A stretch of DNA of 32,000 nucleotides from positions 75,836 to 107,835 of the forward strand of contig PRDJ01000057.1 of the NCBI GenBank assembly GCA_003345555.1, written 5' to 3'. A program made the position numbers and the translations under genes. Below are positions 7,785 through 24,753 of this stretch, one piece after another. Position 1 is the first letter of the stretch. Each line of letters starts with the position of its first letter. Origin of the DNA: Candidatus Thorarchaeota archaeon. GTDB lineage: Archaea; Asgardarchaeota; Thorarchaeia; Thorarchaeales; Thorarchaeaceae. The notes below the pieces were generated by a model. The model had not been told where the DNA came from. It made no database searches and was given only the letters and a program-made list of their open reading frames with translations.

Positions 7785-7955
7785 CTAGGAGTATTTGCGG
7801 AAGCCCATCTTCTTCGCTGTTTCCCTGAAACAGCGTCGGCACATGTTCAGCCCGAATCTGCGGATGAGTGCCTGGTGTGTACCACACCTAAAGCAGGTTC
7901 TGGAACCCTTCCCGACCCTCTTGTGCTCTGTTTCTTCTTTCTTGGTTGTACTCAC
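7785..7955 (-). CDS. rps14: 30S ribosomal protein uS14 (Zn-binding)
   Basis: Hand translation: [56 protein letters not shown]. CxxC...CRRC motif; SD GAGGTGA 6 nt before the GTG; correct position. Not in the ORF track. Confidence 0.96.
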
Positions 7956-11001: not shown

Positions 11002-11913
11002 CTACATCTCCTCGTCGGTCTCGTCAAGTTCATCTGATGGCCCAGCTTCCTTACTGCCTTCTTCACCTTGGGCCGTTCGGCTCTCAGGAGCGGATGGGCT
11101 CTCTCGTTCAGTCTTCTGTCGGGCTTTCTTCGGTCCAGTCTCCTCGACTAGGTCAAGTGCATCGAGTTCCTCGAGTTCACGAAGTTCCTCAATGTCTGTG
11201 ATTCCCTCAAGGCTCTCTCCGACTTCCTCTGCTGCAGCTTCCGCTGTTACCGCCTCAGGCACTTCCTCGACGCCCTCGGCCTCCCTGGAAACCTCGACTA
11301 CACCGGCTTTCTTTGGCTTTGCCTTCTTGACATGAATGACTCCCGGAATCTTTGCATCCGGTCGCATTATCTTCACTTGGACTCCGATTGTGCCTGGCTT
11401 GAGCACTGCGAAGTCACATGCCTTATCGACGAAGAGATCTGCAGGCTGTCCGGTCTTTGCGATGGTGGCTTCTCTGAACTTCTGGTACCTTGCTCGTCTA
11501 CTTCCCAGCTTTCCTTTCACGATTATCTCACACCCGTACGCTCCCGCGCGCATCACGCGTCTTAATATCCAGTAAGCCATTCTGCGGTAACGTACACCAT
11601 GTTCAAGCTGTCTGGCGAGCTTCGAAGCCATAACAGGGGCACTAAGCCAAGGATTCTCTATCTCAACTACTTCTACCTGAACGTTCTGGATTCCGTATTC
11701 GTTCTCGAGCGCATAGGTGAGGTCCCTGATTTTTGCACCACGGCGCCCTATGACAACGCCAGGTCTGGAGGCCTGAATGACAACCTCGGTTCTCATGGGC
11801 ATCTTTCTGATTTCGACGCCGCCATAACCTGCTGCGTTGAGTTCCTTGGATAAGAACTCATCAACTCGCAGCTTGCGCATGTTCTGTTCGATGAAGTACT
11901 TCACTGCGGACAC
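11002..11913 (-). CDS. rps3: 30S ribosomal protein uS3 with long acidic C-terminal tail
   Basis: RPGVVIGRRG, GCEIIVKGKL, GTIGVQVKI; GTG start. Confidence 0.97.
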   Translation of the reverse strand: MSAVKYFIEQNMRKLRVDEFLSKELNAAGYGGVEIRKMPMRTEVVIQASRPGVVIGRRGAKIRDLTYALENEYGIQNVQVEVVEIENPWLSAPVMASKLARQLEHGVRYRRMAYWILRRVMRAGAYGCEIIVKGKLGSRRARYQKFREATIAKTGQPADLFVDKACDFAVLKPGTIGVQVKIMRPDAKIPGVIHVKKAKPKKAGVVEVSREAEGVEEVPEAVTAEAAAEEVGESLEGITDIEELRELEELDALDLVEETGPKKARQKTERESPSAPESRTAQGEEGSKEAGPSDELDETDEEM

Positions 11914-12378
11914 TTAACCCACCTCCTCCAGAACGATCTCTATGTGAGATGTATCCTCATTATAGGCTGTGCTTCTTCCAAACGCCCTTGGAATGAATTT
12001 CTTGTAGGTCCTTCCTCTCTGCGTCGCTGCATGAACAATCTTGAGCCTGTCGATATCAAGACCCTTATTGTCGGCATTGCTCTCTGCGTTCTTCAGTACT
12101 TTGAGAATCTGCTGCGATGCGTTAACTGGATGTCCTCCGGAAGGCCATTTCTTCATTCCTGCATGATGTGGTCTCTGCTTCCGATGACGCTTGTAAGGAA
12201 GCCACGTCTTTTCTTCGATTACGCTCTCGAGCAGCTTGGTTGCCTTGTCGAGCATCATGCCCCGGATAGCATTGCATATCTCCCTAGAGTGCTTGGGAGA
12301 GCACCGCATATTCCTGCCACTGGCTATCGCTGTCTTGTCGGGGTCTATCCCGAGTACGGAATATCCGTATGTTGGAAT
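11914..12378 (-). CDS. rpl22: 50S ribosomal protein uL22, predicted AUU start
   Basis: SPKHSREIC, GMMLDKA, SHIEIVLEE. The conserved N-terminus (I)PTYGYSVLGIDPDKTAIASGRN extends 23 codons upstream of the track ATG to an ATT at 12378, with an in-frame TGA 3 codons further up. Confidence 0.93.
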   Translation of the reverse strand: MPTYGYSVLGIDPDKTAIASGRNMRCSPKHSREICNAIRGMMLDKATKLLESVIEEKTWLPYKRHRKQRPHHAGMKKWPSGGHPVNASQQILKVLKNAESNADNKGLDIDRLKIVHAATQRGRTYKKFIPRAFGRSTAYNEDTSHIEIVLEEVG

Positions 12379-12598
12379 CTTGCCTCACTTCCGGTGTGAT
12401 TGTTATCCTGTGGGCACATTGACATCCGTCATGTGCTGTATCCGCTCGTCTTGGTGGTTTCAACGGCCACTCCAAGACCTCACTGGCACACGTCTACAGA
12501 CCGTTCGCGCGAGCAGAACGAGAGGCCTGCACTGGCTCCAAGGTCTCGAAACAGTCGTTATCCCGAGAGCGACTTGTCGCTTCCGGTCGAGTTTATCT

Positions 12599-12607
12599 TT
12601 TAAAGAT
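12599..12607 (-). promoter_or_regulatory. Putative TATA box (ATCTTTAAA) of the rpl22 operon
   Basis: The main AT-rich element in the 313-bp gap upstream of rpl22; part of the dyad ATCTTT-T-AAAGAT. Confidence 0.55.
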
Positions 12608-12691
12608 TACCAATTATCACACTTGCCCTATGTCTTTGGTATGTTCCTACGGGCAGGCAGGCCAAACGAACAACAGTGAGTGCACAAACCT

Positions 12692-13084
12692 TCATGGATT
12701 GTCGCCGAATTCGTGTGTGACACGCCTTAGGGCAGCCGCCGTTACCGAGTCGTCAATCAAATCAACACCCGACTGGGTCAAGGTCGCTCTCACAAAGTGA
12801 GTCCCAGTGGATAGCACATCGACAAGGCCTCGTTCCTTCAGTTTCAGGAGACTGGCCAGAATGATCTGTGTCAATTCGTCGTCTGTCATTTCGAACCCCT
12901 TGCCCGGAGTCTGAAGTGTCTCGCACATCCTCAGGACAGCTTTTGTGCTGCTCAGAAAACGCCGATTGCTGTCATAGGGATTTGTGTGCAACCAGAGAAG
13001 CACAATGAGATCGATAACGCTGACATTCATGTGCGGATGTCTCTCAAGTGTTCTCTTCGCAACAAGCTCGACAATCGGCATCAC
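12692..13084 (-). CDS. Hypothetical protein, winged-helix-like
   Basis: C-terminal pattern LLKLKERGLV...ATLTQSG resembles a wHTH recognition helix plus wing. GTGA overlap with the upstream ORF. Confidence 0.6.
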   Translation of the reverse strand: MMPIVELVAKRTLERHPHMNVSVIDLIVLLWLHTNPYDSNRRFLSSTKAVLRMCETLQTPGKGFEMTDDELTQIILASLLKLKERGLVDVLSTGTHFVRATLTQSGVDLIDDSVTAAALRRVTHEFGDNP

Positions 13085-13806
13085 TGCTCACCACTGCCAA
13101 CCAAGGCTACTACTCCCGGCTTGGGCTCAAAGATCAATCCGGAGTGCATCAATCTGTCCAGCGAATCCTCGACAGATGATTCCCGCACTCCCTGCGACGT
13201 AAATGTCTTCACAAGGTCCTCAACCTTACAGCTGCCGCCCGCTTTTCTCACAGCTGCTACAATATCCCTTCTGATGTCGGTCTTGCCTTTCACTTTCTCT
13301 GCCGTAGGTCCAGCAGATGGCACCATCTGGATAGTCCACGGACGTGGGAAAACAAGCAGACCATTCTCAGCTAGCCTCGATAGCTGCTCTTCAACCCAAG
13401 GCCAGTCTAGCCTATGCTGTCCACAGAGTTCGGCTATCCTGTCGAGCGAGCAGGGCTTATCCTTTGCTTCTCTCTCAAGAAGCTCCAACAATCTTTTCCT
13501 CTTTCCGGGTGGAGGCACTTCCTCTGTCTGAGAGGAAACCTCCTCGACTGTCAATGTCTCATTGGGCATGAGTGCCCGGAGCCTCTCCTTTGATTTTTCG
13601 ACCGCTAGCTGGAATTCATTGTCACGCTTCGCATTGAATTCTCTCACTGCAGCTGAGGCAGCGTCAGGGCTATCGAAGACAGCGCAGGATGCTTCTGTAA
13701 TGTCAATAATCCTGCCGCAGTAGCTGCACCGTCGGTGTTTCTGACCGGCCGGGGCATTTGTGAAATTCCTGCATTGTGGACAAGCGAAGACGAGGTATGA
13801 TGTCAA
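13081..13806 (-). CDS. Zn-ribbon (DUF1922-like) protein with two C-terminal winged-helix domains
   Basis: CPQC...CSYC; two repeats of L.RL...GL...P (LSRLAENGLLVFPRP and LDRLMHSGLIFEPKP). Confidence 0.7.
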   Translation of the reverse strand: MTSYLVFACPQCRNFTNAPAGQKHRRCSYCGRIIDITEASCAVFDSPDAASAAVREFNAKRDNEFQLAVEKSKERLRALMPNETLTVEEVSSQTEEVPPPGKRKRLLELLEREAKDKPCSLDRIAELCGQHRLDWPWVEEQLSRLAENGLLVFPRPWTIQMVPSAGPTAEKVKGKTDIRRDIVAAVRKAGGSCKVEDLVKTFTSQGVRESSVEDSLDRLMHSGLIFEPKPGVVALVGSGEQ

Positions 13807-24426: not shown

Positions 24427-24753
24427 TCACCTGTTAGCCCAATCTATCACAATTGCTGATTCAGGAAACCCTAGGCCGCTGAGAATGTCCTTGATTACTC
24501 TACGGTGGTCTCCTTGGAGCTCAACGTGACCTTCCTTTGCTGCCCCCCCGCAGGCCAGTTTGCTTTTGAGCTTCGCTGCAATCTGACCAAGGTCGGTGTT
24601 CTTGTCGAAGCCTTCAATCACGGTCGTCAAGCGACCCCATTTTCTGCGTTCTGCACTCACGGTTATCCTTGCCTCTTCCTGCGCGATTGTCTGACAGACA
24701 CACAGGTCCAGAGGCAAGCCACAGTTCGGACAAATGCTCTCGTCAGTACTCAG
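24427..24753 (-). CDS. sui1: Translation initiation factor aIF1 / SUI1, predicted CUG start
   Basis: ERRKWGRLTTVIEG, LKSKLACGG, ELQGDH. The conserved N-terminal ICPNCGLPLDLCVC knuckle lies upstream of the track TTG; a CTG at 24753 is preceded by AGGAG with an 8-nt spacer. Confidence 0.92.
   Translation of the reverse strand: MSTDESICPNCGLPLDLCVCQTIAQEEARITVSAERRKWGRLTTVIEGFDKNTDLGQIAAKLKSKLACGGAAKEGHVELQGDHRRVIKDILSGLGFPESAIVIDWANR

Follow-up and report, generated by a model that had tools for sequence, protein, structure and literature searches.

Near-cognate initiation has been described in several systems that lie close to the locus reported here. In bacteria, infC, which encodes IF3, is an essential translation gene that carries a near-cognate AUU behind a Shine-Dalgarno (SD) sequence, and its weak start ties the output of the gene to the factor that proofreads start codons (PMC4705826). 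In eukaryotes, CUG, ACG and AUU serve as near-cognate starts controlled by e/aIF1; AUU and ACG rank among the better near-cognates in yeast, and archaea share the e/aIF1, e/aIF1A and e/aIF2 core (PMC4705826, PMC6237735). Switches of start codons between related genomes were surveyed by Belinky, Rogozin and Koonin in 2017, who recorded a single AUG>AUU change among 61,358 ancestral AUG starts and found that start-codon switches were coupled to positions -1 to -3 (PMC5622118). Ribosome profiling of Haloferax revealed that ~30% of the putative alternative initiation sites were near-cognate, and these were left without further analysis (PMC7261190).

The present case concerns rpl22, the gene of ribosomal protein uL22, in a stretch of 32,000 nucleotides (the window) on contig C57 of G000, the genome of an uncultured Thorarchaeota (Asgard) archaeon represented by a MAG in 82 contigs. 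Like infC, it serves translation, is essential and has a near-cognate AUU behind an SD. However, the AUU of infC is conserved and forms part of a demonstrated autoregulatory loop, whereas rpl22 as a rule has ATG, its ATT is a young allele, and its product does not act as a fidelity factor. The resemblance to the switches of the survey is found in the AUG>AUU change between close genomes, the substitution at -1 and the retained SD (PMC5622118); in contrast with the single AUU among 61,358 starts, the same rpl22 codon has changed at least twice, and in a highly expressed essential gene. Unlike the e/aIF1-controlled starts of eukaryotes, the rpl22 site would be set by the SD, with no scanning. 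What is considered here the likely explanation is a recent lineage-specific ATG->ATT substitution in single-copy uL22, with AUU still used as a weak start. The features that bear on it are as follows.

11914..12378, minus strand: coding sequence of rpl22 (uL22), which from ATT comprises 154 codons and the TAA (ORF call with NCBI table-11 starts, Pfam, structure alignment).
12376..12378, minus strand: the ATT where relatives carry the start codon (relatives' alignment, RNA-run contigs, L078/L079).
12385..12392, minus strand: Shine-Dalgarno-like GGAAGTGA, retained by almost every member of the family at an equal distance from the start and followed by the 6-nt spacer GGCAAG (12384-12379).
12387-12385, minus strand: in-frame TGA inside GGAAGTGA, at -9 from ATT.
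12307..12309, minus strand: first canonical in-frame start, the ATG of codon 24, where callers limited to ATG/GTG/TTG begin.
11911..11913, minus strand: GTG start of rps3, with zero gap after the rpl22 TAA (sequence reading).
7953-7955, minus strand: GTG start of rps14 behind GAGGTGA and 6 nt, with the TGA of the SD in frame, an architecture like that of rpl22.

Read on the minus strand, the frame of uL22 is TGA GGC AAG ATT CCA ACA TAC GGA TAT TCC GTA and stays open to the TAA at 11916-11914. The ORF from the ATG at 12309 comprises 131 aa, while the use of NCBI table-11 starts gives 154 aa from ATT (11914-12378); the predicted N-terminus is (M)PTYGYSVLGIDPDK in the latter case and would be MRCSPK with a codon-24 start. 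Because the frame is closed by the TGA at -9 and the next ATG, GTG or TTG is codon 24, the conserved N-terminus of uL22 is out of reach of any canonical start, as had been claimed in a sequence-only reading of the window. The identity of the gene is firm: Pfam Ribosomal_L22 (PF00237) matches residues 19-151 with 107.9 bits against a curated cut-off of 28 (E 3.5e-31), and alignment to the solved uL22 of T. kodakarensis (6skf_BV, E 4e-43) covers residues 4-153, which correspond to 6-154 in that protein. With a domain above the cut-off, a homologous N-terminal extension and a place before rps3-rpl29-rnp1-rps17, the product belongs to the archaeal/eukaryotic-type uL22, and it is the only uL22 match in G000, which makes rpl22 a single-copy gene. 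For the window contig, the NCBI protein P0127 comprises all 154 aa and opens with M, as MPTYGYS; thus, the public annotation already uses ATT. Those homologues that carry a name come from Thorarchaeota.

Upstream of rpl22, there are a 313-nt gap and two non-ribosomal ORFs, and rps19 is located on a separate contig (C46:1965-2219, minus strand), so the usual rps19-rpl22 link is broken in G000. This agrees with the same reading's description of rpl22 as the first gene of the ribosomal cluster, and two non-ribosomal ORFs with a gap of ~315-560 nt likewise precede rpl22 in the relatives' loci inspected. The downstream genes carry strong SDs of their own, of which GGAGGAGGTGGG sits within the 3' end of rpl22 before rps3. 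A 63-aa ORF in another frame (12284-12475) crosses the uL22 start.

The SD of rpl22 and its spacing to ATT are identical to those of the ATG relatives and match those of rps14 (GAGGTGA-GCAAGG-GTG, with an in-frame TGA inside the SD), which upholds the earlier observation that both genes share an SD-to-start spacing of 6 nt. Since the SD and spacer are unchanged from the ATG relatives, the 30S subunit should sit with AUU in its P site. In the proposed mechanism, the conserved Shine-Dalgarno GGAAGUGA, six nucleotides upstream, would place the 30S subunit in this manner, and the initiator Met-tRNA would read the near-cognate AUU with a third-base mismatch, two of the three positions being paired, to yield the full 154-aa protein, probably less efficiently than from AUG. 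We infer each of the three elements, namely the use of AUU as the initiation site, the insertion of Met and the reduced efficiency. AUU should be a poor start, because aIF1 of S. solfataricus prevents 30S complexes on an AUU mRNA (review, PMC4705826), and near-cognate starts reach ~0.5% of AUG in yeast (PMC4705826). A weak AUU is odd for an essential stoichiometric protein that is present in one copy per ribosome. The -1 and +6 changes that are coupled to the non-AUG codons, described below, may be compensatory for such a start.

In the MAG, a search for the 3' end of 16S, which holds the anti-SD, found none, and ARAGORN, run to seek the initiator tRNA, returned 17 tRNAs including one intron-bearing tRNA-Met. 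A genome-wide count of an SD followed by 6 nt, a codon and a long ORF gave rpl22 as the only ATT case, with counts too small to judge genome-wide stringency. The same count yielded an oxidoreductase-like ORF (LERPCNVIVAGVGGQG...) on the minus strand of C68, in which GGAGGTGA and 6 nt precede a CTG, a plausible near-cognate start; its first canonical start would cut a GxGGQG motif. An ambiguous ACG holds the same position in a DapA-like ORF on C39, and ambiguous ATC cases also occur in the count. Elsewhere in the window, the first canonical start of the aIF1/SUI1 gene (24463-24675, minus strand), a TTG, falls inside a Cys-x2-Cys motif. The eS26 gene of G000 also appears to begin with TTG.

The aligned start codon in 29 relatives' loci was ATG in 28 and GTG in one, and the N-terminal coding motif was found in 80 of 87 Thorarchaeia species genomes, with ATG in 76, GTG in three and ATT in one, which is G000 alone; the other Asgard groups sampled also have ATG at the uL22 start. 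The sequence-only reading had taken AUU as the start and had proposed a deep archaeal regulatory feature. AUU indeed emerges as the most likely start, but the deep archaeal feature is refuted, because ATG prevails across Thorarchaeia (76/80) and the sampled Asgards. The tabulation of start codons and the look at close relatives told against that wider claim, for the relatives mostly carry ATG, including G003, the closest species genome (95% aa identity), and several JGI contigs likewise, and non-AUG codons are limited to a small subclade. In-frame TGA at -9, part of the conserved SD, is present in nearly all relatives.

The non-AUG start is accordingly not conserved; it is found as ATT in G000 and L078/L079 and as ACG in L076. 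In L078/L079, the start region reads GGC AAG ATT CCA ACA TAC GGA TAT TCC GTA, and the L078 lineage has 87.3% nt identity to G000 in rpl22, G003 being equally distant from G000. L076 reads GGC AAG ACG CCA ACG TAC CGA TAC with the frame intact (codon 532-534), an allele that rests on a single 3.1-kb JGI contig. In each of the three non-AUG lineages, the base at -1 is G and the second codon is CCA (-1 A>G, +6 G>A), while the small clade's ATG members (G003, jgiA, jgiB, L077 and L080) read AAA ATG CCG. Two metagenome pattern scans were run, the first without matches and the second with one ATG locus (L077). The best reading of these data is that ATG>ATT in uL22 represents a recent change limited to a small Thorarchaeota subclade, not an ancient archaeal trait, and that AUG has changed at least twice in this subclade, because the related lineage L076 has ACG at the same codon.

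An ML tree (~1.4 kb), with G001 and G002 as outgroup, gave ((G000,L078) 46/49, (G003,L076) 87/93) 67/80 beside a fully supported JGI clade, and a clade of the three non-AUG rows was not rejected (p-AU 0.107). The signal is unevenly distributed along the alignment. Between -100 and +140 (window ~12240-12480), G000 and L078 are united by 11 informative sites, compared with one and two for the alternatives, and L076 groups with G003 at eight sites against four and three, in a block whose limits were set after a sliding window had been viewed; the flanks are star-like, with roughly equal support for each of the three groupings. G000 and L078 are 90-97% identical from the spacer through the N-terminus and 86% identical in the remaining rpl22 and rps3. 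The mosaic phylogenetic signal among G000, L078, G003 and L076 suggests recombination among lineages. In our reading, ATT would lie on a haplotype block common to two otherwise equidistant lineages, owing to recombination or incomplete sorting, and ACG would have arisen separately on a G003-like haplotype.

These observations also bear on the idea that the weak AUU and ACG constitute a selected device, by which uL22 and, through coupling, rps3 would be throttled via start-codon stringency, that is, the level of aIF1. In its favor, a single small subclade has lost AUG at least twice, where the background rate of AUG>AUU is ~1 in 60,000, and every change comes with -1 G and +6 A. Moreover, the block of -100 to +140 (11 sites vs 1 and 2) is common to two otherwise equidistant lineages, so the ATT haplotype may have spread by recombination, and the rpl22 TAA adjoins the rps3 GTG, so some coupling of the two genes is possible. 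Nevertheless, ATG is retained in 76 of the 80 species, which indicates that the ordinary state works well, and the downstream genes possess strong SDs of their own; the limits of the block used to count site patterns were picked after the sliding window, two or three events carry no statistical weight, and drift in a small population can explain the same data. A selected throttle is judged unlikely. The fuller version, in which AUG was replaced at least twice by eukaryote-style AUU/ACG with -1 G and +6 A, the AUU haplotype recombined, and selection thereby tied the output of uL22 and its operon to aIF1 stringency, must be regarded as slightly more doubtful again.

A hairpin just inside the ORF had also been noted.

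12355..12369, minus strand: 6-bp hairpin TACGGA-TAT-TCCGTA at ORF positions +10 to +24, part of the RNAfold MFE fold.

The perfect inverted repeat noticed earlier does exist (12369-12355) and is predicted in the RNAfold MFE, and folding of the 91-nt region gave z = -1.89, with 10 of 200 shuffles folding as well. Among 47 distinct relatives' sequences, the pairing is complete (6/6) in three, 5/6 in ten and at most 4/6 in 34; it is perfect in both ATT lineages, 5/6 in G003, L076 and jgiB, and most of the family has two to four of the six positions paired. Conservation supporting a local role of the hairpin was looked for across these 47 sequences and was not found, and the Y-G/R-Y-S-V codons may by themselves account for much of the pairing. 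Kozak-type enhancement of weak starts involves a stem-loop ~14 nt after the start codon, but the present stem begins at +10 and is fully paired in only 3/47.

A better candidate for a regulator of the operon than the hairpin or the weak start is the 5' leader.

12463..12568, minus strand: structured 5' leader block of ~105 nt, -190 to -85 from ATT (47-locus alignment, RNAalifold).
12597..12605, minus strand: TATA-like CTTTAAAAG, which probably serves the rpl22 operon as promoter, within a conserved TTTAAA block ~30 nt upstream of the leader.

Across 47 Thorarchaeia loci, the leader block is more conserved than the coding sequence, with many columns at least 90% conserved, and RNAalifold predicted 21 pairs, 13 of them with compensatory changes. 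A metatranscriptome contig (X6) joins the block to the coding sequence, the block is present whatever the start codon, and an Rfam scan of 11800-13200 returned no match. The predicted structure makes it a candidate new ribosomal-protein leader.

Translation might instead start at the internal ATG at 12309, which would give a 131-aa uL22 lacking 23 residues, with the upstream codons kept for some reason at the RNA level. This ATG is the first canonical start and is chosen by gene callers, and the region from -100 to +80 is unusually conserved in nucleotides between the two ATT lineages. On the other hand, it has no dedicated SD, the sequence before it is the same coding sequence as in the ATG relatives, and Met24 is not kept in the family (e.g., Ile in L033). 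A codon-24 start would remove conserved protein, because residues 4-23 are homologous to the solved archaeal uL22 and the Pfam domain begins at residue 19. The differences between G000 and L078/L076 in the N-terminal codons fall at third positions in 7/8 cases (a codon-by-codon reading by eye, of low power), a signature of a translated region. In codons 2-23, G000 and L078 differ by two synonymous and no non-synonymous changes, also with low power, as only two changes lie on the ATT-only path, and by 42 synonymous and eight non-synonymous changes in the rest of rpl22; the upstream codons of the non-AUG lineages contain no stops and no indels. Several points therefore argue that codons 2-23 would still be translated, and an internal start is rated as distinctly improbable. 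Two further candidates were rejected. One was a +1 shift of frame after a start at the GTG within the SD, a codon that lacks a separate SD and occurs in every ATG relative; the other was a start at the upstream AAG, the poorest near-cognate start codon.

The ATT itself is not an error of assembly. A DNA contig identical to the window over 11900-12700 was found, which may be the source assembly itself. Two contigs from two metatranscriptome runs of 2017, belonging to two studies, cover the start codon and read ATT: X6 spans 12213-12529 with a single SNP relative to the window at 12456, and X8 spans 12084-12382 with a single SNP at 12252. Wetland metagenome DNA runs of 2018 and 2022 hold near-identical DNA with all sampled words of the stretch, and ATT recurs in the L078/L079 contigs from two further JGI samples, in a lineage ~13% diverged. 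The run data are contigs and not reads, from which allele frequencies and transcript ends are not readable, and a minority ATG allele is possible. An error of sequencing or assembly, or an uncommon variant picked up by the assembler, is a scarcely credible source of the ATT: G000 is a MAG of 82 contigs and the run data are likewise contigs, but the base occurs in two RNA-run assemblies each with its own SNP elsewhere, in two other samples of the diverged lineage, and in DNA runs of two years that contain every sampled word.

Many database entries for Thorarchaeota uL22 are only 131, 114 or 113 aa long. The short calls P0073, P0094, P0095, P0124, P0126, P0128 and P0132 were considered as non-AUG cases and rejected, for their DNA has a properly placed ATG; of the short calls that yielded DNA, only P0125 (ATT) and P0129 (ACG) were real non-AUG cases, and P0083, P0130 and the 131-aa call from the window itself yielded none. 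In L031, L033, L034, L069-L073 and L080, uL22 has a proper ATG and SD, so that the often shortened calls reflect a systematic error of gene callers at this gene. For annotation, this means that callers limited to ATG, GTG and TTG drop 23 conserved residues from an essential ribosomal protein, and that public collections contain 131-aa and 114-aa versions of uL22.

The probable AUU start of uL22 reveals no new mechanism. The repeated change of the same start codon, to ATT and to ACG, together with the common haplotype block, adds somewhat to the interest of the locus. Its value lies in a natural before-and-after set, in which ATG, ATT and ACG alleles stand in nearly identical SD contexts of close relatives, and which is suited to asking how strictly the eukaryote-like initiation machinery of the Asgard archaea reads the start codon.
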